Of a stretch of 64,000 nucleotides of DNA, positions 36,725 through 51,040 are shown piece after piece (the stretch's first letter is position 1; the number at the start of each line of letters is the position of its first letter). The notes beneath the pieces were generated by a model. The model had not been told where the DNA came from. It searched no databases and saw only the letters and a list, made by a program, of their open reading frames with translations. This stretch comes from Draconibacterium sp. (GTDB lineage Bacteria > Bacteroidota > Bacteroidia > Bacteroidales > Prolixibacteraceae), in contig DAOPJR010000002.1 of the NCBI GenBank assembly GCA_035399765.1, positions 14,696-78,695 of the forward strand, in the 5' to 3' direction. Position numbers and translations under genes: made by a program.

Positions 36725-38002
36725 TTAGTTCACGATAGCGGCAATAGCTGCTCCGAGCAAACTTGAGTTTTCAACTTCTACAATTTCGTAAAAACGTTGA
36801 TTTTCTCCCGACAGGAAGTTTTTCAGGTATTTTTCGAATTGCGATCTAAATCCGTGCAATTTATAGAAAGTAGTTCCCTCAATAGTCATCAGTACGGGTT
36901 TCTCATGTGTTTTTGCCTTACCGCTTTTCAGGATTACGGCAGCCAGGTTGGCAGCAACCAGTTTGGCTGCACGGTCAATCAGTCCATCGATAATTTCGGC
37001 AGCAAGAAGTTTATCCGACTGGTCGGTGAATACACCCGGCAATACACTTTTTGCATCATCAATTCCATACACATATTTGTTTACCTGTTCGGTGCTCAGT
37101 TCTTCCAGATTCTCAAAAATTTCAGGATCAGCGAAAACACCTTCTTTTGCTGCGGTTTTTAATGCAGTTGTACACAACCCCCCGAAGTAACCTCCGGCAA
37201 ACATTTTTTCAAAGGCATAACGTCCCGGGTTTTTTGTAGTGTTGTCAAAAGCAAGATCAATATCAGTACGCGGCATTTTGGCAAAAGCACCTGATTCAAT
37301 ATTGATGATTTGGTTGCCGTCCATATCCAGCCCATCGGTTTTGGTGATCTTTTTATTGGCTTCGATATAAGCGGTGTTGGTTCCTGTGCCTAAAATGTAA
37401 CCAATGTATGTATCGTAGCTTTTTACAGCCCGTGCAGCTTTTCCGGCCAGCAGAGTCGAAACAGTATCGTTCATCAGTACAATTTGTTTCTCAGGCGTTC
37501 CCATGGCAGCCAGTAGTTCGTGACCAACCATTTGTCCGATCACTTCAGGTGCTTTAATTTCTTTACTCCACTCAAGCAGTTTCCCGTCTTTACTCGGGAA
37601 AATCTCGGCAGCGTACGAAAAACAAAATCCGATTTTGTCTGAAACTGATTTATAGTCTTTGAGGTAAGTGGCAAGAGTGTTAAAAAAGGCTTCTTTCGAG
37701 AGTTCTTCTTCCACACCAGGCATTTTCCCTTTTTGAATGTTTTCAGTAATCAGTTTCAGGTTATCATCGAAATATACTTTGGCAGCCCTGAAGTTTGTGC
37801 CCCCGGCATCGACTGCTACTACAGGCTCGTTGGCTTTTACTTCACCGTCCGCTTCAATATACGTAGGCAGCATTAAAAGTGAACTTTCTTCACCTGCCAG
37901 TCCTTTTTCCATTTCGATTAAAAAAGAATTGACCACCTCTTTCATGTTAATACTGTCGGCAGTCATTTTGTGTGCTTTTAAAAAGTCAATTGCTTTGCTC
38001 AT
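36725..38002 (-). CDS. Hexokinase (eukaryote-type hexokinase family)
   Basis: MLPTY, VDAGGTNFR, GFCFSY, WSKE, NDTVSTL, ILGTGTN, INIESG, FEKMFAGGY, LLGAAIAA. Confidence 0.9.
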   Translation of the reverse strand: MSKAIDFLKAHKMTADSINMKEVVNSFLIEMEKGLAGEESSLLMLPTYIEADGEVKANEPVVAVDAGGTNFRAAKVYFDDNLKLITENIQKGKMPGVEEELSKEAFFNTLATYLKDYKSVSDKIGFCFSYAAEIFPSKDGKLLEWSKEIKAPEVIGQMVGHELLAAMGTPEKQIVLMNDTVSTLLAGKAARAVKSYDTYIGYILGTGTNTAYIEANKKITKTDGLDMDGNQIINIESGAFAKMPRTDIDLAFDNTTKNPGRYAFEKMFAGGYFGGLCTTALKTAAKEGVFADPEIFENLEELSTEQVNKYVYGIDDAKSVLPGVFTDQSDKLLAAEIIDGLIDRAAKLVAANLAAVILKSGKAKTHEKPVLMTIEGTTFYKLHGFRSQFEKYLKNFLSGENQRFYEIVEVENSSLLGAAIAAIVN

Positions 38003-39409: not shown

Positions 39410-41563
39410 ATGGCTTCAACTTTTATTTTTTTTGATCGACTGGATGCTATTCTTGAACGTATCATTGGCGACCGGCAATTAACTCCTTCCGAAGAAGTGA
39501 CAAAAAAATACATGCTGACACAGGGAGCAGCAGCGATAAGCGGATTGTCAGCGATGTTTATTCTTGGCAGGGTCATTGAAGCCAAAATGTTTGCCGAGTT
39601 TTGTTGGGTCTATATACTTTTCATGATAGGAGCCAATTACCTCTTTCTAAAAGCAAAGAATATAGGTAAATTTTTATTTCTTCTAAAGATTGCCATGATA
39701 GTGATCTCCTCCATTTACGTTATAAGAATGGGAGGTTTGTTGACTAGCGGTGGGCTGTTCCTGCTTTCGGTGCAGGCAGTTACAAGTACCGTAATATTGC
39801 GGAATATGCGCAAAATACTAACTGTCTCGCTTATTTTTGTTGTGGCAATGACGCTTCTTGCTGTATTTGAACCACTTTTCCCCACACGATATGCTCTTAA
39901 TCCGCAACAAAATGTCATTGCTTTTGTCTCAAGTGTTGTGTTAATTACCGGATACATTTTCTTTTTCAGTCTGTATGCTTCGAACCTTTACACAAAAATG
40001 GAACATCTTGAAACGCAGAGGCAGAAGGAATTGAACGATGCAAAAACACGTTTGTATACTAACATTACACACGAGTTCAGAACTCCTTTAACAGTTATTC
40101 TGGGTTTGGCCGATTCTGTCAAAGCCGGACAGCAAAACCACATTGAAGCGAAAATGGATACCATAATAAAGAATGGTAAAAGTCTATTACAACTGGTTGA
40201 TCAAATGCTGGACCTGAGTAAACTTGAGTCGGGCAAAATGACCGTTAGCAAAATACATACAAACATCATCCCATTCTTGAAATATGTTTTCCAGTTGCAG
40301 GAATTTTATGCTGAAGAAAAAAGAATCCATTTTTCATTCTTCTCTGAAAGCCAGTCATACAAGCTGGATTTCGACCCTGAGAAAACCGCTGCTATCATTT
40401 CTAACTTGCTGAATAATTCTATCAAATTCACTTCCGAAGGAGGAAGCATTACCTTGAAGGTATATGCCGTTTCGAATTATTTGCACATCGAAATCAGAGA
40501 CAATGGAATTGGTATCCCGGCAGAAAAAATGGAAAAAATATTTGATCGGTTTTACCAGGAAGATGGAGAAAATACACGAAAAAACGGTGGAGCTGGAGTT
40601 GGACTGGCACTTACCCGCGAATTGGTGAATTTGATGAAGGGCACCATAAGTGTGAAAAGTGTTCCCGGAGTTGAAACCGTGTTTGTGGTACGTTTACCTG
40701 TTACACATCAAATTCAGACAGAGTTAAAAGAAGTTACGAAAGGTTTAAATTTTGACGATGAGAAAATACTCCAGTCAAAATTAGATACTTCAAAAGTGCA
40801 ATCCAGTAATCATCAGCAATTGTTAATTGTGGAAGACAATGCTGATGTGGTTGCTTATTTAAAAGCGTGTTACCAGAATAATTTCAGGATAATAATAGCA
40901 GAAGATGGAATGACGGGTTACCAGATGGCGCTGGAATATATTCCCGACATTATTATTAGTGACGTGATGATGCCGGGAATGGATGGGTTTGAATTGTGCA
41001 AAAAACTAAAAGACGATTTTCGTACCAGCCACATCCCCATCATTTTGCTTACTGCCAAGGCTGATATTCCATCGCGTATCGAGGGGCTCGAGCAAGGTGC
41101 TGACGCTTATGTGGTAAAGCCTTTTAATCAACAGGAATTGCTTGTACGTATGCAGAAATTGCTGGAACTTCGACGCAATCTTTTTAAACGCTACAGTAAT
41201 GGAAATGGATCCGGATTTTCATCCGATCCGGTGATTCTGAAAGAAGATAAATTTTTTGAACGCCTGAATGAGTCGATCAACCGGAATCTTAGCGACGAGA
41301 ATTACGACATTCATCAACTTTGCGAAGACATGGCCATGAGCAAGTCGCAGCTGTACCGAAAATTCAGGGCGCTCACTAACGACTCGGCAGCACGATATAT
41401 CCGCCGTCAGCGCATGAAACGCGCTAAAGAATTACTTCAGACCACCGACATGAATATTACTGAAGTAGGCTACGAGGTTGGTATGAAAAGCCTTTCAACC
41501 TTTAGTCAGCTTTTTAAAGATGAATTTGGTGAAAGCCCACGGGAGTTTCTTAATCAGCGTTAA
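39410..41563 (+). CDS. Hybrid sensor kinase-response regulator (multi-TM sensor, HisKA, HATPase, REC, AraC)
   Basis: About 6 N-terminal TM helices, TNITHEFRTPL, NNSIKFT, GAGVGLAL, IVEDN/DIIISDVMMP REC, MSKSQLYRK..NITEVGYEVG AraC HTH. Confidence 0.92.
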   Translation: MASTFIFFDRLDAILERIIGDRQLTPSEEVTKKYMLTQGAAAISGLSAMFILGRVIEAKMFAEFCWVYILFMIGANYLFLKAKNIGKFLFLLKIAMIVISSIYVIRMGGLLTSGGLFLLSVQAVTSTVILRNMRKILTVSLIFVVAMTLLAVFEPLFPTRYALNPQQNVIAFVSSVVLITGYIFFFSLYASNLYTKMEHLETQRQKELNDAKTRLYTNITHEFRTPLTVILGLADSVKAGQQNHIEAKMDTIIKNGKSLLQLVDQMLDLSKLESGKMTVSKIHTNIIPFLKYVFQLQEFYAEEKRIHFSFFSESQSYKLDFDPEKTAAIISNLLNNSIKFTSEGGSITLKVYAVSNYLHIEIRDNGIGIPAEKMEKIFDRFYQEDGENTRKNGGAGVGLALTRELVNLMKGTISVKSVPGVETVFVVRLPVTHQIQTELKEVTKGLNFDDEKILQSKLDTSKVQSSNHQQLLIVEDNADVVAYLKACYQNNFRIIIAEDGMTGYQMALEYIPDIIISDVMMPGMDGFELCKKLKDDFRTSHIPIILLTAKADIPSRIEGLEQGADAYVVKPFNQQELLVRMQKLLELRRNLFKRYSNGNGSGFSSDPVILKEDKFFERLNESINRNLSDENYDIHQLCEDMAMSKSQLYRKFRALTNDSAARYIRRQRMKRAKELLQTTDMNITEVGYEVGMKSLSTFSQLFKDEFGESPREFLNQR

Positions 41564-41687: not shown

Positions 41688-42878
41688 ATGAAAACCAAAA
41701 TTTTAATAGGAGTACTGGCCGTTTTATTTGCTCTGGTCTCCTGCGAAAAAGACAATTTTGCTGAAAAAGATGATCTTGTTCCCACCGAAAAATCTGTCAT
41801 CATTGGTGAAGGAAAGGTAGTTTCGGAAGTGATTCACAGTCCGGCACTGGAGGACAACTTGCTGGGTTTATCTGCCGATCGAAAAGTAAATGTTTATCTT
41901 CCGAAGAGCTATGAAAATTGCCCTGGAAAGCATTATCCGGTTATTTACTTTTTGCACGGAATGCCAGCCTGGAGCGACATGCTGATGGAAGCCGTTCCTT
42001 TTGGGATATTCCAGCAAATGGCACAGCTTGCAGCAGGTGTTGATTTCCCCGCAGAAGGATTTTTACCATGGCTGAATAACCTAATAGATGATGAAGGAAT
42101 GCGCGAAGTAATAATTGTAATGCCGGACGCAAGTACCTTGTTTGGCCCTTCGATGTATGTGAACAATTCTGTAATTGGAAATTTTGAAGATTACATTGTT
42201 GAAGATGTTGTTGCGTTTGTTGACAGCCACTACCGAACCATTCCGCATTTTAACTGGCGTGCTATTTCAGGCCAGTGTGCCGGAGGATACGGCGCGATGA
42301 GTATTGCCATGAAACATCCCAAAGTTTTTCGATATGTTGGAGCACTCTCACCAGCGCATTTCCCCGAACAAACCTGGATGGTAATAGCCCAGTACATGCT
42401 GGCAGAAGACCAAATTTGGTTTGATAATTGGGGAGTACCCGCCGGACCAACTCTTTATTCTCCTTACAGTCCGTTTAAATTCGCAAATTGTTCGGCATAC
42501 ATGCTTGGACAAAACTGGTTACCCAATCTGGGTAATCCGCCGTATTTCTGCGATTTAACTTTTGTTATGGTAGATGGTGTGCCAGTGATTAATCCTGAAT
42601 TAATGACTAAAGTTGATGCGCAGAATCTTCCTGCATTATCGCAGCAATATGAAAAAGGCCTGCGTCAGCTCAAAACTGTTTATTTCGACTGTGGCGAAAA
42701 CGATGAACTTGGAATGTATCAGCCAAATGTAATGTTGAATGAGCAGCTCAATTCCATGCATATCAAACATCAATTTGAGACCTATTCAAATCCGGGAACA
42801 CATATCAGTAATCTATATGAAAGACTTGGGAAGGTTTGGGTATTGCTTTCAAATAACTTTCCCGAATGCGATGAATAA
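41688..42878 (+). CDS. Esterase-family alpha/beta hydrolase lipoprotein with Cys at the nucleophile elbow
   Basis: LVSC lipobox, VYLPKSY, YPVIYFLHG, IVMPD, RAISGQCAGGYGA, DCGENDE, GTH. Confidence 0.82.
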   Translation: MKTKILIGVLAVLFALVSCEKDNFAEKDDLVPTEKSVIIGEGKVVSEVIHSPALEDNLLGLSADRKVNVYLPKSYENCPGKHYPVIYFLHGMPAWSDMLMEAVPFGIFQQMAQLAAGVDFPAEGFLPWLNNLIDDEGMREVIIVMPDASTLFGPSMYVNNSVIGNFEDYIVEDVVAFVDSHYRTIPHFNWRAISGQCAGGYGAMSIAMKHPKVFRYVGALSPAHFPEQTWMVIAQYMLAEDQIWFDNWGVPAGPTLYSPYSPFKFANCSAYMLGQNWLPNLGNPPYFCDLTFVMVDGVPVINPELMTKVDAQNLPALSQQYEKGLRQLKTVYFDCGENDELGMYQPNVMLNEQLNSMHIKHQFETYSNPGTHISNLYERLGKVWVLLSNNFPECDE

Positions 42879-43075: not shown

Positions 43076-45964
43076 GTGAAAATAATTTCATCTGTTTTAT
43101 TGGTTTTACTATCGTTTCAGTTTGTTCAGGCTCAGGTGATTGAAAAGTCTGAGATAAAAAGCAAAGTGGAGGCGTATAAAAAAGATGCAAAAGGGCCGTA
43201 CCAGCAAATTATGTGGTTTTGCCCCGATGGATCGAAAGTACCTCCCCGTGAGCGTTGCCCAGAGCCGGGAGGTGTGCAGCGAGCTACATACAAATTATGG
43301 GTGGAAAATCTGGCAAAAAGCAATCACATTTTTCTGGGTCAAATTCTGGCGGCTACTGATTATGCTCAATTTCTGGATGCTGAAAACCAATATTCACGGG
43401 CTAAACAATATCAGATTGAAAATTATCTGGAAGGAATTGATAATGGCTGGATTCAGCAAAAGGCAAAATTCTACCGGGGTGCTTTTCAGGATGAGGATGA
43501 AAACGCTTGGGGCGAAAAATTTCTGAAGTGGACATTGGAAGAAGAAAGTCTTGATTTATCCGATTTTTTCCTATTGCGGCAGTGGTTTAAAAATATTCCT
43601 CACAAAGCAGAGACTGCCAACATTCGGAAAGTGCGGGTGCTCTCACTTGAAATAGCTGACAGTATTCCGTCTTTTATGAACATTCGGGTTAAAATCCATG
43701 GCCAGCCAGAAGCTTCGGATATTGATGCAGTAAAAGGGTTCAAACAGAAAAATGCCGGAAAAATTTCATCAGCTAACGCGGCAAAACTGGATGAGTTGAT
43801 TACTGAAATGCAACGCATTTATACTCCTGTCGAATGGACTTCACTAGGAAGCTTTGCCTCGAACAAATCATTAAGACCCGATGAAAGAAATTTGATACAA
43901 GGATGGGTAAGCGAAATTAATGCGTTGCCTGAAGTTGGTCAGAAAATTGAACGGGCAGCTGCAATGCTTCTTGAAACAAGAGAAATAGTTCTGGCGTTTG
44001 GACCGAAAGATAAATATGTATTGCTTGATTTTTCTGTTAAAACGGAAGAAATGATCTTCAGGGAACTTCCGAATTGGAAACCTGTTGACCTTTCCGATAT
44101 CCTTCGAAAAAACTATGTGCTCTCGATGGCTGCCGCCGGTGCAGGTTATATTGAAATGTGGGAATGGGAAACCATTGCACCATTACTAAAACCTTTTTCT
44201 GAAACTCAACTTTCGCTTGGTGAACTTACCGAATGCTTAAATACAGCACGTAGTGTAGTTGAATGGAGTACCGGTATGATTCGGGCCAACTATGGAAAGG
44301 AAATTACGCTTTTCGAAGGGTTCGAACCTTTGACCAGTGGTTTTGCAGATGATTTGATTCGCTCGTCAGTTTTATTACAGTTAGGACAGAGTGTGGGTGA
44401 GCTTGGTGCCTTTTTATCTGCTCGGTCCTCAGGAGCTAATCAGGTTTTCGACCTGGCAAATCAGGGGTATTTTCGTGGCCTTAATTCCGGTTTTGCCAAA
44501 GGGGTACTGGTGGTAACCGATAATCCGGAAGAAATTGAAGTATCCTCCGATAAAATATATGTATTTAATCACCCACCGTCAGATTTAAAACCGGTGGCAG
44601 GAATTGCTACTGTTTCAGAAGGAAATATGGTGTCACATGTTCAGTTACTGGCACGAAATCTTGGGATTCCAAATGCTGTGTTATCGATGCAAAACATGAG
44701 TGACCTTATAAAATATGAAGGCAGGGAAGTTTTTTATGCAGTAACTCCTAACGGAAATGTGACGATGAAACTGGCTGAAAACATGAATGACAGTGAAAAG
44801 AAACTGTTTGAAGTGAAGAAACGGGAAGAGCGAAAAATCCGGGTAGGAACCGAGAAACTTGATTTGGAGCAAACCACTGTCCTCAATCTTCGTGATGTGG
44901 ATGCCAAAAGTTCGGGAAAACTTTGTGGCCCGAAGGCTGCAAACCTGGGGCAACTCAAACGCATGTTTCCTGATTACGTGGTAGAGGGACTCGTGATACC
45001 GTTTGGTATATTCAGACAACACATGGATCAGTCAATGCCCGGGCAAAACGGAACATACTGGGATTTTCTAAATAAAACGTTTGCTGAAGCTGGTGAAATG
45101 GAAAAGGCTGGAGCAGAAAAAGCCGATATGGATGTGTTTGTACTGAAACAATTGGAAACGCTTCGAAATGCCATTCTTGAAATGAAATTTCTGCCGGGTT
45201 TTGAAGCCGACCTGAGATCGGGATTTGTAAATGTGCTTGGTAAGGAGATGGGAGATCTGCCTGTATTTTTGCGGAGTGACACAAACATGGAGGATCTCAA
45301 GGATTTTACGGGTGCTGGTCTGAATCTAACGCTCTTCAACGTAGTGGATGTAGATAAAATATTGAAAGGTATTAAACAGGTGTGGGCTTCGCCGTATTCA
45401 GAGCGTAGTTTTCGCTGGAGGCAGAGTTTTCTGCTAAATCCTGAAAATGTGTATCCATCCATTTTGGTTATTCCAAGCGTGAATGTGGATTATTCGGGAG
45501 TGCTAATTACGAAGGGGGTTAGTAATGGAAATGCAGATGATTTAACCATTGCATTTAGCCGGGGAGCCGGTGGCGCAGTAGACGGGCAGGCAGCTGAATC
45601 GTATCTGCTTGAAGCAAACGGAACCAATCGTTTACTTTCTCCTGCACGCGAACCCTCCTACAATACGCTGCCCTTAACAGGAGGAACAGGAAAAGCATTT
45701 GCTACTTTTGAATCTCCTATTTTGAGAGAAGAAAACCTAGCAAAAGTACGTGAGTTCAGTAAACAACTTCAGCAGAAAATGGAAGAAACTCAAAGTATGG
45801 AAGGTCCTTTTGATGTAGAACTCGGTTTCCTTCAGAATAGACTTTGGCTGTTCCAGGTACGTCCTTTTGTGGAAAATAAAAATGCAGCCGGGGCAGATTA
45901 TCTTAAATCAATTTCGGTTAAACCCGATGAGAAGAAAATGATTTCACTTTCAGAAAAATTGTAA
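43076..45964 (+). CDS. Exported PEP-synthase/PPDK-superfamily dikinase (unknown N-domain, phospho-His domain, C-terminal ATP-grasp)
   Basis: Signal peptide MKIISSVLLVLLSFQFVQA (GTG start); GNMVSHVQLLARNLGIP (His521); GPKAANLG (~618), FLRSDTNMEDLKDFTGAGL (~733), VWAS, SGVLIT, DVELG...LFQVRP. Confidence 0.82.
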   Translation: MKIISSVLLVLLSFQFVQAQVIEKSEIKSKVEAYKKDAKGPYQQIMWFCPDGSKVPPRERCPEPGGVQRATYKLWVENLAKSNHIFLGQILAATDYAQFLDAENQYSRAKQYQIENYLEGIDNGWIQQKAKFYRGAFQDEDENAWGEKFLKWTLEEESLDLSDFFLLRQWFKNIPHKAETANIRKVRVLSLEIADSIPSFMNIRVKIHGQPEASDIDAVKGFKQKNAGKISSANAAKLDELITEMQRIYTPVEWTSLGSFASNKSLRPDERNLIQGWVSEINALPEVGQKIERAAAMLLETREIVLAFGPKDKYVLLDFSVKTEEMIFRELPNWKPVDLSDILRKNYVLSMAAAGAGYIEMWEWETIAPLLKPFSETQLSLGELTECLNTARSVVEWSTGMIRANYGKEITLFEGFEPLTSGFADDLIRSSVLLQLGQSVGELGAFLSARSSGANQVFDLANQGYFRGLNSGFAKGVLVVTDNPEEIEVSSDKIYVFNHPPSDLKPVAGIATVSEGNMVSHVQLLARNLGIPNAVLSMQNMSDLIKYEGREVFYAVTPNGNVTMKLAENMNDSEKKLFEVKKREERKIRVGTEKLDLEQTTVLNLRDVDAKSSGKLCGPKAANLGQLKRMFPDYVVEGLVIPFGIFRQHMDQSMPGQNGTYWDFLNKTFAEAGEMEKAGAEKADMDVFVLKQLETLRNAILEMKFLPGFEADLRSGFVNVLGKEMGDLPVFLRSDTNMEDLKDFTGAGLNLTLFNVVDVDKILKGIKQVWASPYSERSFRWRQSFLLNPENVYPSILVIPSVNVDYSGVLITKGVSNGNADDLTIAFSRGAGGAVDGQAAESYLLEANGTNRLLSPAREPSYNTLPLTGGTGKAFATFESPILREENLAKVREFSKQLQQKMEETQSMEGPFDVELGFLQNRLWLFQVRPFVENKNAAGADYLKSISVKPDEKKMISLSEKL

Positions 45965-45965
45965 T

Positions 45966-47222
45966 ATGAAGACTTCCCTAAAAATAGTACTTGCAGCGAT
46001 TTTACTAATCCTGGCAGACTTTGCTTCAGCTTACCCAATTGATGGGTATGCACTTACGGGAATCCGGCGTTTGTTACGTTTGCAAATGATCCTGAATGGT
46101 GAAATCAAGGACACCAAGCCTATCGAAGGGGCGCAAAAAACGCTGGCTGATATCCATCTACAGTTAATGAATTTAAAAGGAGATAGCCTTGTTACGTTGC
46201 CTAAAACCGATCCGGTTCTTCAGAAAAAACTAGGTTCTCTTTTCCCCAATCTGGATGAAAGTTATTCGGTTACCTTACTCGATATTACTCCAGGAAAACC
46301 AATTCGTTATGCTACTCGTCAGGAGACACGTGGTTTTCAGCCTGGAAGTGTTGGGAAGCTGGCCGTTGTTGCCGCATTGTTTACTGAATTGCAACGTATT
46401 TATCCCAACTCGTTTGAAAAGCGCCAGCAACTGCTCAAAAATAAATCGGTTCGTGCTGGTCGCTGGGCGATGACCGATGAACACACCGTCCCTTTTTTCG
46501 ATCCCGAAACAAAAAAACTGGTGAAACGAACAGTGAAGGAAGATGATGTTTTTACGATCTACGAATGGGTAGATCATATGCTTTCGGTTAGTAACAACGG
46601 TGCGGCAAGTGTGGTGTGGCGGGAAGCCATTCTGATGCGTCACTTTGGTAAAGATTATCCGGCCTTGAATGAAGAACAGGCCATTCAATTTTTTAAAACA
46701 TTTCCAAAAGATTCGTTACGTCGATTGGCCAACCTGGTCGTAAATGAACCTCTGCAGGAATTAGGAATCACCAAAGAAGAATGGCGACTGGGAAGTATGT
46801 TTACTCAGGGAGCCAAGTCTTTTATCCCGGGAGAAGGAGGTAGTATTGGCTGTCCGCAGGGATTGATGAAATACTTGATTGCATTGGAAAGTGGCAAAAT
46901 TGTGGATGTAAAATCGAGCCTCGAAATAAAACGTTTGTTGTATATGACGGACCGGAGAATTCGGTATGCCACTTCACCCCGACTGACAAAAGCTGCAGTT
47001 TACTTCAAGTCGGGGAGTTTGTACAAATGCAAAAAAGAAGAAGGTTTCGAGTGCAAAAAATACATGGGCAACGTGGAAAATTACATGAACTCGGTGGCAA
47101 TTGTCGAGCATCCTGACGGAACGGTTTATTTGGTTGCACTGATGTCGAACGTGTTGAAAAAGAATTCCAACATCGATCACCAAACCCTGGCGACCTATAT
47201 CGATGATGTTATCAGGAAATAA
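45966..47222 (+). CDS. Exported serine hydrolase, class A beta-lactamase/PBP fold
   Basis: Signal peptide (FASA-Y); GSVGK (SxxK), SNN (SxN), FKSGS (KSG); starts 1 nt after the dikinase stop. Confidence 0.8.
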   Translation: MKTSLKIVLAAILLILADFASAYPIDGYALTGIRRLLRLQMILNGEIKDTKPIEGAQKTLADIHLQLMNLKGDSLVTLPKTDPVLQKKLGSLFPNLDESYSVTLLDITPGKPIRYATRQETRGFQPGSVGKLAVVAALFTELQRIYPNSFEKRQQLLKNKSVRAGRWAMTDEHTVPFFDPETKKLVKRTVKEDDVFTIYEWVDHMLSVSNNGAASVVWREAILMRHFGKDYPALNEEQAIQFFKTFPKDSLRRLANLVVNEPLQELGITKEEWRLGSMFTQGAKSFIPGEGGSIGCPQGLMKYLIALESGKIVDVKSSLEIKRLLYMTDRRIRYATSPRLTKAAVYFKSGSLYKCKKEEGFECKKYMGNVENYMNSVAIVEHPDGTVYLVALMSNVLKKNSNIDHQTLATYIDDVIRK

Positions 47223-47224
47223 AT

Positions 47225-50071
47225 TCAGACGGAAGTAATCGCTTCATATGCATGGTTGGCAAAATCCCGGACCTTCTGGTTTGGATTATTCCTGTATCTT
47301 TCAACCAACTGAAGGTAAATTTTGTCTTTCATTTGTATGATCAGGTAGAGTACAGCCAGTTTTATTTTGATGTCATTTCCACCCAACAGTTTCGAATAAC
47401 AGGTAAGTTCATCAGGGACATCGATATTAAGATTTTTAAGAGCCTCTTCAGTGAGCGAATCCAAAAGCGTTGTTTCAAGAATTGGAATGACCACTTTCTT
47501 TAACCTTGTGTCAAGTAGGTTATCTAGAAATTCGATGCTGCTAATACGCGTTTCGTTTTTATTACTTTGATAACTTTTAAATGCCGAACTGATATCTTCG
47601 GGGGGATATTTGAGCTCTAAAAGCTGAAAAATCCGCTCCAACCCTCCATCAAGTCGACGCTCCAATAAATCGATTAGACTTTTTCTGGCATCGCTTAACC
47701 CGGGGTTTTCACCAGCATCTTCAAACCTGGATTCTACATACAATATAGACAAGGTGTCCTGAATTACTCGGGCTTCATCCAGTATCCGGTTGATAATGGC
47801 TTTCTTTTCGAAATGTAGAAACGGGAATTTTACTTTCAAATGACTAAGTGAAATCAGTGCTTTATTTCTTAATACGACATCTTCTGAGTCGAGAAGTCCA
47901 AACAAAAAACTAACTGATCGTTGTGAATCGATGTTCTCAACAATTCCCGGAATCTTTCGATGGATTTCAATTTTCGATGTATCATCCAATAAGTTTTCAA
48001 GGAAAGGAATAATTTCAACGCCGTATTGTGCCAGCGCTAACTGTGTATTTTCAGTATATTCAGGATTTTCAAGCAATAAAAAGAGATGGTCTATAAACTC
48101 GGAAGCCATGGTCAGTCCAGCTGCCCGAATGGCGGTTTTTCTGATTTCGGAATTTTGATTCAACAAACCCTGCTCAACAAATGAAAAGTAGCCGGGCATG
48201 TTTCCTTTCCCGATGGTTTCCAAAATTATTTTGGTTTCATATTCGATCTTTTCGGGATCGTTTTCCAGTTTTAATGCTTCAATTCTTTTTGTAACAAACT
48301 GGCGCAACTCGTATTGTTTTTTTAGTTCGGGATTATCACGTAATTCACCGGCAAGACTTAATAAAGCTGCTCCACTCACCTTGTTGTCAGTGTCAGTCAT
48401 AAATTGCTGCATCAATTCCACCCTATTTTCAACAGGTTGCTGCAGAAGAAATTCAAAGGCAGAAATTCTCACCTCCTGCGAAGGATCCATGATCATTGTT
48501 TGCACTTTATCCATAATATCCTGGTTTCGGTAGAGAGAAAGGTTTTGAAGTGCAGAGGCCCGTACTTCGCCACTTTCATTATTAAGCAAATTCAGAATAA
48601 AAGGGAAAAGCCTGTCGTCAGGTTTTTCACGGGTTTTCAACAAAACCCACATTCTCTGGTTGTTCGTTCCCTGTTCCAGGACATTGATCAGACCATTTAA
48701 AACTGACTCTGTGGCAATATTTATTTCCTTGCTTTCTTTTCCTTGGGAATTTTGTTTCAGTTTATTCTGAAAAGATAGGATGTATTCGCGACGAATCTTC
48801 AAGGCAAAATAAAACCAAATGCCAAGAATAACAATGATCATCAGACTGATAAATGGAGTGGAAAGCTGAAAAGCATTTACAAGCAAAATAAGGATGATTC
48901 CGCCAATTCCCGTTGCCACACTGTCGACAAAAACATCGATAAAGGTTTTTGTTTTGTTTTTTATTGAAAGTGGAATCGGGAGCGCAAGCAGCTCGGTGGC
49001 CGATTTATTAATCGATTGTTTTAGGCTGCCATCTGCCATTTTTATAATGATTGCTGCAAATAGCGAAGGTACAAACAGCACCAGCAGTGCGCCGATTAAA
49101 ATACCGGCAGGTAGAAAGAAAAGCGAGGTGCCAACGCCAAAAACACCAACTACACGGCGGGTCAGAAAAAGCTGGATTAACAAGGAGATGAGATTGAAGT
49201 TGGAAAACCAGAATCCAAAAAAGGCGGTCAGTTCGTCCGGGTCACTGATTTTCATGGAAGCAAGAGCATTAAACTGGTAATCCACCAGTTTAGCAACAAT
49301 TACACTCATGCCAATAATCCCGGCAAGATAGGTCAGATGTTTCGATTTCCTGATTAAACGAAACGGACTTTCCACAATTTCATTCAATTTATTTTTACTT
49401 CTGAATGGATTCTTTTTCCCGCTAAGATTGTCGCGCCAAATCGATTTTGTGATCGGAATGCAAAGCCAGAGTAAAAATGCACTGACGAAAAGCAGATTCT
49501 CAGAACCGATGGACGGTGCTAGAATGGATGTTAAATAACCTCCGAAAATGCCACCTGCAATGGCTCCTGATCCAATGAAGCCAAACAGACGTTTGGCTTC
49601 GCGAATATTAAAAACAAGGTTGGCCAGAATCCAGAATTGTGAAGCAGATAATACGGCAAACAGTGCAACCCAGATATAAAAAAAATAGATAACCCAGCTT
49701 ACAAGAAAATGAAATCCAAGTAAGACACCAAAAACAATTAAAATTCCAACCGAAATGGCAATAGTCCGTCTCATTAGAAGGTAAAATGAAATCCGGGTCA
49801 ATATCCTTGAATAATAATAGGAAAGGATCATGGCTGCCACGGCAACAAGAACAAAAGCCAGAGGCAGGCTTTCTACCCCGAAGCGCGAAAGAAACATGCC
49901 TGTAACAGATGGTTTTACAATCAGAAGTGTTGAAATAATCAGGAAAATATTTAGCTGCATCAGAAAGGCGCGTTTATATTCTCCTTCCCGAAGATCAAAG
50001 AATTTCAACAGTAAAAATTTCACTGGTTTGCCCAACAGGGCCGTGTTCCAACCCAACGGATTCGTTTCCAT
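47225..50071 (-). CDS. TLC/NTT (Npt1/Npt2-like) nucleotide translocase fused to HEAT repeats
   Basis: About 12 TM in the first ~430 aa with SQFWILANLVFNIREAKRLFGFIGSGAIAGG and ELLALPIP...KTKTFIDVFV signatures; HEAT-like repeats (EVRASAL, EVRISAF, EIRKTAI, VLRNKAL). Confidence 0.85.
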   Translation of the reverse strand: METNPLGWNTALLGKPVKFLLLKFFDLREGEYKRAFLMQLNIFLIISTLLIVKPSVTGMFLSRFGVESLPLAFVLVAVAAMILSYYYSRILTRISFYLLMRRTIAISVGILIVFGVLLGFHFLVSWVIYFFYIWVALFAVLSASQFWILANLVFNIREAKRLFGFIGSGAIAGGIFGGYLTSILAPSIGSENLLFVSAFLLWLCIPITKSIWRDNLSGKKNPFRSKNKLNEIVESPFRLIRKSKHLTYLAGIIGMSVIVAKLVDYQFNALASMKISDPDELTAFFGFWFSNFNLISLLIQLFLTRRVVGVFGVGTSLFFLPAGILIGALLVLFVPSLFAAIIIKMADGSLKQSINKSATELLALPIPLSIKNKTKTFIDVFVDSVATGIGGIILILLVNAFQLSTPFISLMIIVILGIWFYFALKIRREYILSFQNKLKQNSQGKESKEINIATESVLNGLINVLEQGTNNQRMWVLLKTREKPDDRLFPFILNLLNNESGEVRASALQNLSLYRNQDIMDKVQTMIMDPSQEVRISAFEFLLQQPVENRVELMQQFMTDTDNKVSGAALLSLAGELRDNPELKKQYELRQFVTKRIEALKLENDPEKIEYETKIILETIGKGNMPGYFSFVEQGLLNQNSEIRKTAIRAAGLTMASEFIDHLFLLLENPEYTENTQLALAQYGVEIIPFLENLLDDTSKIEIHRKIPGIVENIDSQRSVSFLFGLLDSEDVVLRNKALISLSHLKVKFPFLHFEKKAIINRILDEARVIQDTLSILYVESRFEDAGENPGLSDARKSLIDLLERRLDGGLERIFQLLELKYPPEDISSAFKSYQSNKNETRISSIEFLDNLLDTRLKKVVIPILETTLLDSLTEEALKNLNIDVPDELTCYSKLLGGNDIKIKLAVLYLIIQMKDKIYLQLVERYRNNPNQKVRDFANHAYEAITSV

Positions 50072-50107
50072 GAATTATACAAAGGAAGTTGAGTGGAAAA
50101 TTAGGAA

Positions 50108-51040
50108 TTAATTTGGAGCGATTAAAGTATTATCGACCTTTAAAGCCAGATCGCGTAAAATTTTTTCTCCGTCAGAAGCTTCGGTAAGTGCTACAAGAAT
50201 GTATTTACGTTTGGGGCCCCACACCAAAATAGAATCAGCATGATAATCGTGCCATGTTCCGGATTTTCGAAATAGCTTGGCTTTTGGAGCTACTTTTTCA
50301 ATCGAGTTCACAAATTTGTGGTGCAACTCAGGATCCTGCATAATGTCCAGCATTTGGGCTGATCGCTCCGGGCTTACCAATTGTCCATTAACGAGCAAGT
50401 AGTAGAATCGACATACCTGGTTTACCGTGGCGGCGTGACTAATGCCTTTAATTGGTTCAGGATATCTTTTCCCTGTTTTAGCATATCGTTTGCCAACCCA
50501 CAATCCTCCTCCGTGTTCTTCATCGTAAAGCAGGTACTCGGGATCGGTCAATACTTTCTCTATTTTTTCAAAACCCAATAGATCGATGAGTCGGGTTGCA
50601 GCCTCATTATCAGAGCGGGCAATCATTTTTCGCATATCATCGTGTATGGCAGAAGTCTCTTTAATTTCACCCTTGTCAAGGGCATCTTCCATTGCTAATA
50701 AAATTGCAATCTTGGGAAGGCTGGCTGCATACATAATATCGTCGCCATTAACTCGTGCAAATTTGATATTACTGGTATCATTCAATACTACCAATCCAAC
50801 TGCCATTTTCTTTTCTGCCACAAGTGATTTCCATCGTGGTTGTTTGTTTATAATTTGTTCCAGAGCATTCTGTAACTCCTCATTCTTATAGGTATAAAGT
50901 GGTTTTACAGCTTCCTGCTCTATGGTAAAAGGCAAACTCATATCCATATCGTCAGACAGCCCGGAAGATAAGTTGTTCGTACCTGAATTGCAACTTAGCA
51001 AAACTGTAACAATCAGATAAATAAATAAACCCTTCATCAT
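50108..51040 (-). CDS. Lipoprotein serine hydrolase, class A beta-lactamase-like (Beta-lactamase2)
   Basis: LLSC lipobox (start probably 51040; ORF open to 51112); YAASLPK (SxxK), RSDNEAA (SDN), RKSGTW (KSG), HADS. Confidence 0.82.
   Translation of the reverse strand: MMKGLFIYLIVTVLLSCNSGTNNLSSGLSDDMDMSLPFTIEQEAVKPLYTYKNEELQNALEQIINKQPRWKSLVAEKKMAVGLVVLNDTSNIKFARVNGDDIMYAASLPKIAILLAMEDALDKGEIKETSAIHDDMRKMIARSDNEAATRLIDLLGFEKIEKVLTDPEYLLYDEEHGGGLWVGKRYAKTGKRYPEPIKGISHAATVNQVCRFYYLLVNGQLVSPERSAQMLDIMQDPELHHKFVNSIEKVAPKAKLFRKSGTWHDYHADSILVWGPKRKYILVALTEASDGEKILRDLALKVDNTLIAPN

Follow-up and report, generated by a model that had tools for sequence, protein, structure and literature searches.

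A predicted exported dikinase with the domain order of plant glucan, water dikinases, co-inherited with an NTT-family carrier and two SxxK proteins

A 64,000-nucleotide stretch of a Draconibacterium sp. genome (assembly GCA_035399765.1, contig DAOPJR010000002.1, positions 14,696 to 78,695 of the forward strand), referred to below as the window, contains an open reading frame (ORF) at 43076-45964 on the + strand, which begins with a GTG start codon and encodes a protein of 962 amino acids (aa), here termed the dikinase. It belongs to a set of four genes in 43076-51040, the other three of which encode a 418-aa SxxK protein, a carrier of the NTT (TLC) family and a 334-aa SxxK lipoprotein. The gene for the 418-aa protein begins 2 nucleotides (nt) past the dikinase stop codon, while the gene for the carrier, a 948-aa TLC and HEAT fusion, is preceded by the 334-aa Beta-lactamase2 gene and is convergent to the dikinase pair. 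The features of these genes, in window coordinates, are as follows:

43076-43132, + strand: predicted Sec/signal peptidase I signal peptide of the dikinase (residues 1-19, cleavage between ..VQA and Q), from the hydrophobic segment in relatives and the Q-rule
43133-44455, + strand: N-terminal domain (N-domain) of the dikinase, residues 20-460, an all-alpha model of about 19 helices with a hairpin carrying C49 and C61
44468-44755, + strand: phospho-histidine swivel domain, from a sub-threshold PF00391 match and alignment to the His domains of phosphoenolpyruvate (PEP) synthase (PEPS), rifampin phosphotransferase (RPH) and pyruvate phosphate dikinase (PPDK)
44873-45910, + strand: ATP-grasp nucleotide-binding domain (PPDK_N, PF01326) with invariant ATP/Mg motifs
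45966-47222, + strand: 418-aa predicted exported protein of the class-A-beta-lactamase/PBP-A fold (SVGK, SxSxN, KSG and C-x7-C motifs; Foldseek)
47225-48751, - strand: C-terminal HEAT-repeat domain of the carrier, presumably cytoplasmic (HEAT_2, E 2.3e-14)
48752-50071, - strand: NTT/TLC carrier membrane domain of the 948-aa NTT-HEAT protein (Pfam TLC, TIGR00769, AtNTT1 9j3j)
50108-51040, - strand: class-A-fold SxxK lipoprotein, about 310 aa (lipobox LLSC; SLPK, SDN and KSG motifs; Beta-lactamase2, E 1.2e-21)

An original prediction, made from the sequence alone, had described the dikinase as a secreted protein in which a helical N-domain of about 450 aa with a pair of cysteines is followed by a phospho-histidine at His521 and by ATP-grasp motifs that reach the C-terminus, with no pyruvate-binding barrel, and each element of this layout was recovered. 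A Pfam scan of the 962 aa placed PPDK_N (PF01326) at residues 616-941 (E 9.5e-24, 84.7 bits against a cut-off of 27), matched no domain in residues 1-470 and gave no match to PEP-utilizers_C (PF02896), the PEP/pyruvate TIM barrel; the profile scan that had been suggested thus turned out as foreseen for these two families, while PEP-utilizers (PF00391), at residues 504-544, was seen only below its threshold (E 0.004, 17.2 bits against 23.1). The His motif VSHVQLLARNLGI is encoded by 44630-44668, with the His521 codon at 44636-44638. When the protein was compared with PDB sequences by phmmer, the His521 loop aligned to the catalytic His loops of PEP synthase 8a8e and Listeria RPH (5hv1, 5fbs), and residues 680-944 aligned to the ATP-grasp domains of the same three entries. 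A family profile gave PEPS 8a8e (6e-36) and RPH 5hv6 (1.7e-26), with the His loop also aligning to that of PPDK and the N-domain left unmatched. In an alignment of 25 relatives (52-82% identity) His521, K620 of the GPKAANL motif, the RSDTNMEDL..FTGAGLN motif, D913/E915 and Q927/R929/P930 are all invariant, and the catalytic machinery therefore looks intact. More than 550 relatives, each of about 965 aa, were found, indicating that this is a real and conserved gene.

All 25 aligned relatives start with a few basic residues and a hydrophobic segment that leads to Ala-Gln; the Gln, Q20, follows the Ala of the cleavage site and is shared by at least 90% of them. A Gln immediately after the signal peptidase I cleavage site is the Bacteroidetes Q-rule (PMC5837995, PMC10653852). 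Furthermore, in a set of 171 loci that spans two deeply divergent clades, a hydrophobic segment lies just ahead of the conserved domain in every one of the 161 proteins that could be scored; in the non-Bacteroidota clade it ends in AxA-like sites. These observations support the prediction that the dikinase is an exported protein, as had been proposed.

Relatives of the dikinase bear the database names 'phosphoenolpyruvate synthase' or 'PEP/pyruvate-binding domain-containing protein', and the suspicion that automatic annotation misleads here appears justified. The dikinase does share the PPDK_N ATP-grasp and a PEP-utilizers-type His loop with PEPS and PPDK, and its best solved sequence relative is PEPS 8a8e. 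However, the order of domains in PEPS and PPDK is ATP-grasp, His, barrel, whereas the dikinase lacks the PEP-utilizers_C TIM barrel, has the reversed order and is predicted to be exported. Its NCBIfam matches are partial and confined to the ATP-grasp part, at about 80 bits for PEP synthase models with cut-offs of 600-880, and at 50.3 bits for the RPH model NF041857 with a cut-off of 999. A canonical PPDK, with PPDK_N ahead of PEP-utilizers_C in a single frame of 904 aa, is encoded on another contig (C3) of the same genome, so the dikinase gene is not that of the housekeeping enzyme; with the barrel missing, the contention that it is no PEP synthase holds. RPH has in common with the dikinase a homologous ATP-grasp (profile E ~1e-26), a His swivel domain and the three-domain logic of a water dikinase, but it is cytoplasmic, its order is ATP-grasp, substrate (rifampin-binding) domain, His, and its substrate domain is unrelated to the N-domain. 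Taken together, the domain content supports placing the dikinase within the His-swivel dikinase superfamily as a new branch that is predicted to be exported and has the architecture of plant glucan, water dikinases (GWD).

In plants and algae, GWD1 is an alpha-glucan, water dikinase (EC 2.7.9.4) and PWD a phosphoglucan, water dikinase (EC 2.7.9.5). As had been noted from the motifs, the order substrate domain, His, ATP-grasp of these plant enzymes is that of the dikinase, in which a helical domain precedes the His region (504-544) and the C-terminal ATP-grasp (616-941). Structure prediction and a fold search had also been suggested; the N-domain could be modelled with AlphaFold2 at a mean predicted local distance difference test score (pLDDT) of 92.9 and is all-alpha save for one small beta hairpin bearing C49 and C61, while searches of the PDB with this model returned nothing beyond four-helix bundles, and the fold is unlike the rifampin-binding domain of RPH. 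The cysteine pair (W-F-C...C) is present in 165 of 169 scorable family members. A search with residues 22-470 among 1.84 billion representative proteins retrieved 445 clusters, in nearly all of which it begins near residue 30, the protein being 960-1040 aa long or else a shorter sequence that may be a fragment; the N-domain is thus seen only fused to the dikinase module and always at its N-terminal side. It carries many invariant Arg, Glu, His and Trp residues, and a D425/D426-x-x-R429 motif is conserved, of which D426 and R429 are kept in both clades.

The likeness to GWD may extend beyond domain order. Among ESM Atlas structures, residues 22-470 matched a plant-dominated PPDK_N + GWD1_pHisD cluster with a template modelling (TM) score of 0.57 by query over 318 positions. 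By language-model features of the whole dikinase, the nearest foreign families in that atlas are plant PPDK_N + GWD1_pHisD clusters (0.89 and 0.88, with 180 and 175 shared features, one cluster carrying CBM20), and not PEPS, PPDK or RPH. Around the catalytic His, both the dikinase and GWD/PWD have the pattern hydrophobic-hydrophobic-S-H-V. In potato StGWD1, the central domain directly ahead of the His domain has 20 helices in three clusters, finds no PDB equivalent except a four-helix bundle, and presents conserved E900/E901/R904 towards the catalytic His992 (PMC13553574). The dikinase N-domain, with its roughly 19 helices against about 20, is likewise fold-matched only by a four-helix bundle, and its D426-x-x-R429 lies 92 residues ahead of His521 where E901-x-x-R904 of StGWD1 lies 88 ahead of its catalytic His, a comparison of quoted residue numbers and not of aligned positions. 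The N-domain is presumed to be the acceptor-binding domain and the counterpart of the GWD1 central domain.

Several observations limit the comparison with GWD. GWD1_pHisD (PF22973) gave no match to the dikinase at E<=1, and a genome-wide search with PF22973 misses the gene; together with the PEP-utilizers score below its cut-off, this marks the His domain as divergent. The StGWD1 entries 9HA9 and 9QVI were not among the matches of the N-domain fold searches (library to April 2026) or of the PDB profile search, and the link between the N-domain and the GWD central domain is drawn from predicted models and quoted residue numbers rather than from an alignment. Moreover, the starch-binding modules CBM45 and CBM20 of GWD/PWD are lacking (residues 1-470 contain no Pfam domain and are modelled as all-alpha), the dikinase is predicted to be exported whereas GWD/PWD are plastidial, and it is partnered by SxxK enzymes and a nucleotide carrier instead of amylases. 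Starch is an unlikely acceptor; the plant enzymes phosphorylate alpha-glucans at C6/C3 hydroxyls. We read the dikinase as an enzyme that would work like GWD and may share a core ancestry with it, yet stands outside the GWD family as that family is now defined.

Both SxxK partners share SxxK, SxN and KSG motifs with PBP-A (Thermosynechococcus Tll2115), which is DD-peptidase-like, and with class A beta-lactamases. Judged in 38-39 relatives of each protein, the S-x-x-K, S-x-S-x-N, K-S-G and C-x7-C motifs of the 418-aa protein, which has a signal peptide, are invariant, as are SLPK, S-x-N and KSG of the 334-aa protein with its LLSC lipobox. The model of the 418-aa protein (pLDDT 92.1) matches class A beta-lactamases and PBP-A (Foldseek E 1.8e-10, TM by target ~0.75), from which it differs in having about 120 extra residues and only 11-17% identity. 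The NCBIfam bla_class_A model gave 25.3 bits for the 334-aa protein against a cut-off of 200 and no match for the 418-aa protein. PADLOC assigned neither the dikinase nor the SxxK proteins to a defence system. A complex prediction for the N-domain and the 418-aa protein returned a score of 0.00, which is no verdict and was counted neither for nor against an interaction.

The carrier just exceeds the cut-off for PF03219, the 12-TM domain of the TLC/AAA family (21.2 bits against 21), is also matched by TIGR00769 and aligns with the solved plastid AtNTT1 (9j3j) at E 4.5e-8. A crude analysis of hydropathy and the positive-inside rule places its HEAT tail in the cytoplasm. It has the architecture of NTT-HEAT fusions, which have been described as widespread in free-living bacteria and uncharacterised (PMC5381601). 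The same TLC/TIGR00769 kinship joins it to AtNTT1 and Chlamydia Npt1, but unlike these it comes from a free-living bacterium and is linked to a predicted exported ATP-using enzyme; this linkage would therefore imply export of ATP rather than import. In several Bacteroidota genomes, mostly dikinase-negative (G364, G360, G308, G368 and G320), NTT-HEAT and stand-alone NTT genes were observed side by side, and one further genome (G104) has three NTT genes within 22 kb.

Unbiased ORF clustering of the 171 loci yielded only four widely shared families, present in 168, 146, 110 and 102 loci, the next being an ABC-F ATPase in 32. By tblastn, the 418-aa protein, the carrier and the 334-aa protein were found, respectively, at 10, 6 and 8 of 11 loci of sampled genomes, and at 76, 62 and 55 of 80 loci of species genomes; the latter are mostly marine Flavobacteriaceae, Saprospiraceae, Cyclobacteriaceae and Marinilabiliales with one KSB1, and many of the misses fall at contig ends. 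Synteny of the cassette holds in Bacteroidota and KSB1. At 80 metagenome loci of a divergent clade, whose dikinases are only 30-34% identical and whose relatives are named Desulfovibrionales, the corresponding counts were 64, 38 and 48. In this clade the order of the cassette is rearranged, and the TLC carrier stands alone at about 430 aa, lacking HEAT repeats (PF03219, E 1e-17), from which it follows that the HEAT domain is not essential to the association.

In a survey of 401 Bacteroidota genomes, the dikinase N-domain occurred in 12, and the 418-aa protein (E<=1e-10) in the same 12 and no others. The carrier (E<=1e-15) occurred in 35, including all 12 dikinase-positive genomes, and carrier orthologues of at least 45% identity in nine, all nine of them dikinase-positive. 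Kinship among genomes makes them non-independent, so the statistical weight of these counts is inflated. Where the carrier gene was not adjacent, it was found elsewhere in the genome (5 of 5 genomes), and the NTT-HEAT paralogues of dikinase-negative genomes have no dikinase or SxxK neighbours. The retention of linkage through gene rearrangement and domain loss across phyla constitutes strong evidence, from comparative genomics, that the four products would serve one shared function.

Other neighbours were considered as members of the cassette and rejected, as none is conserved beside the dikinase elsewhere: the upstream esterase (41688-42878), a hybrid histidine kinase/response regulator/AraC gene further upstream (39410-41563) and a hexokinase (36725-38002). 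An ABC-F-type ATPase (510-610 aa; ABC_tran + ABC_tran_Xtn) stands directly upstream on the same strand at about 18 of the 171 loci, in both clades, and may reflect chance synteny or an occasional fifth member. The ORF clustering of the 171 loci revealed no linkage of the cassette to SusC/SusD or other uptake genes. A promoter and terminator scan, which does not cover Bacteroidota promoters, gave nothing useful above shuffled sequences.

The explanation towards which we lean, with some reserve, is that the carrier supplies ATP to the periplasm and that the beta-phosphate, once on His521, is handed to an acceptor bound by the N-domain. In such a scheme, the NTT-family carrier would export cytoplasmic ATP, probably by exchanging it for AMP or ADP. 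The C-terminal ATP-grasp would bind this ATP, and His521 would take the beta-phosphate while the gamma-phosphate passes to water, giving AMP and Pi, by the chemistry expected of a water dikinase. The His domain would then swing to the helical N-domain, where D426, R429 and the invariant Arg, Glu, His and Trp residues could aid transfer of the phosphate to a hydroxyl of the acceptor. The two exported SxxK enzymes of the PBP-A/class-A fold might act on the same envelope substrate, and the AMP and Pi that are released may be taken back.

As to the acceptor, an endogenous envelope glycan, with peptidoglycan as the first candidate, is put forward tentatively, as a suggestion that is more apt to be wrong than right. 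It is favoured because the cassette is self-contained, without linkage to SusC/SusD or uptake genes, because it spans Bacteroidota and the divergent clade, and because the dikinase is paired with two PBP-type enzymes and has a GWD-like domain rich in Trp, Arg and Glu. Phosphorylation of starch primes it for amylases, and by analogy some free-living diderms might keep a periplasm fed with ATP by a dedicated NTT carrier, in which the dikinase phosphorylates a wall glycan, be it peptidoglycan or some other envelope polysaccharide, and so primes it for the two PBP-type enzymes, an extension that we regard as rather unlikely as it stands.

There are several points that weigh against the proposed supply of periplasmic ATP. 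The periplasm is generally considered to lack ATP, and NTT carriers studied so far import or exchange nucleotides; none is known to export ATP from a free-living bacterium. The carrier is distributed more widely than the dikinase, with 23 of the 35 carrier-positive genomes having no dikinase, and part of the loci have no carrier in the immediate vicinity. Furthermore, related His/ATP-grasp modules occur in surface proteins that are likely to lie beyond the outer membrane, out of reach of periplasmic ATP.

Two of these points also underlie a different, unlikely view of the carrier, in which it would salvage the nucleotide product or transport some other solute, and ATP reaches the dikinase by leakage, lysis or from the environment, or the enzyme runs backwards. 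The wider occurrence of the carrier family would fit this view, as would the fact that NTT relatives carry NAD, other nucleoside triphosphates and other solutes (PMC5381601), and the presence of related dikinase modules in giant proteins that are apparently exposed at the surface, where no source of ATP is obvious. Set against it are the restriction of the specific carrier subfamily to dikinase-positive genomes (9 of 9) and a linkage that survives changes in gene order and the loss of HEAT, while reversal of a water dikinase is energetically unlikely, given the thermodynamics of PEP synthase-type reactions. A reading of the dikinase as a cytoplasmic enzyme of the PEP synthase/PPDK type, as annotated, with the N-terminal hydrophobic stretch an artefact of gene-start choice, would agree with the database names and with the fact that its best NCBIfam matches are PEP synthase models, albeit at far below their cut-offs; we hold it to be extremely improbable in view of the absent PEP/pyruvate domain, the reversed order, the signal segment in all 161 scorable relatives and the true PPDK elsewhere in the genome.

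The cassette could also act on something other than a glycan. It might inactivate xenobiotics or antibiotics in the periplasm, the dikinase phosphorylating, as RPH does, a hydroxyl of a small molecule that acts in this compartment and the SxxK pair hydrolysing or binding beta-lactam-like compounds, and the presence of RPH among the closest solved relatives of the ATP-grasp and the class A beta-lactamase fold and motifs of both partners would be in keeping with this. We think it improbable, however, since both partners fall short of the NCBIfam model for class A beta-lactamases, PBP-A, which is DD-peptidase-like, is among the nearest folds, the N-domain differs from the rifampin-binding domain of RPH, and the cassette lies on the chromosome, is conserved by vertical descent across phyla and shows no link to mobile elements or efflux genes. 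Alternatively, the N-domain may dock a protein, much as the helical subdomain of enzyme I of the phosphotransferase system (PTS) docks HPr, and His521 may phosphorylate an SxxK partner or another periplasmic protein in regulation or a phosphorelay. The strict co-occurrence of the dikinase and the 418-aa protein, with genes 2 nt apart or overlapping, speaks for such a role, as does the helical nature of the N-domain; yet the known dikinases of the X-His-ATP-grasp and ATP-grasp-X-His orders act on small molecules or glycans, and the invariant polar and Trp residues of the N-domain resemble an active site more than a docking surface, which leaves protein phosphotransfer with a slender chance.

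Full-text literature searches on periplasmic, secreted or exported dikinases, on periplasmic ATP and on NTT-HEAT function yielded no description of this four-gene system. The known phosphoryl transfers in the periplasm use lipid donors. An exported ATP-grasp/phospho-His enzyme that is co-inherited with a carrier of the ATP/ADP-translocase family would constitute a concrete and testable case of deliberate ATP supply outside the cytoplasm, would provide a first candidate function for the widespread, uncharacterised NTT-HEAT proteins of free-living bacteria, and would show that GWD-type architecture is found in bacteria as well as in plastids. Cultured species with the cassette include Formosa algae, Maribacter arcticus, Winogradskyella thalassocola and Leeuwenhoekiella palythoae. 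Near-identical DNA is present in metagenome runs from activated sludge, wastewater and hot springs. In a wastewater metatranscriptomic library, small contigs lie within all four genes (covering 44190-44576, 45970-46295, 48559-50101 and 50235-51030) at 95% identity or more, seven of eight at 99% or more; DNA carry-over is possible, so these contigs only hint at expression. The same run has no contigs over the upstream esterase and a second RNA run has none at all, neither of which was counted as absence.

Two further PPDK_N proteins were observed in the same genome, besides the dikinase and the canonical PPDK. One, on contig C10 (L002:352-2844), is a second predicted exported dikinase of 830 aa. 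Its signal peptide ends in ..SVAQ; it further contains a weakly matched CarboxypepD_reg-like beta-sandwich, an unassigned middle part, the His loop LSHINILSHNRGTPN and, at the C-terminus, PPDK_N (E 2.4e-27). Over the His and ATP-grasp regions it shares 29% identity with the cassette dikinase (E 1e-19), and an M20 peptidase gene follows it. It belongs to a very large family: at least 348 proteins of 1,454-4,150 aa contain its His/ATP-grasp module (34-37% identity, E 1e-65 to 1e-140), and as these proteins have FN3, cadherin, Calx-beta, LRR, purple-acid-phosphatase, T9SS sorting and SLH domains as well, they are apparently located at the surface or outside the cell. The other, on contig C141 (L210:976-3951, - strand), encodes 991 aa with an internal PPDK_N, has no signal peptide, looks cytoplasmic and is unrelated to the cassette. 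Lastly, the hexokinase of the window is of the eukaryote type (Hexokinase_1 + Hexokinase_2, E 4e-43), here in a Bacteroidota genome.

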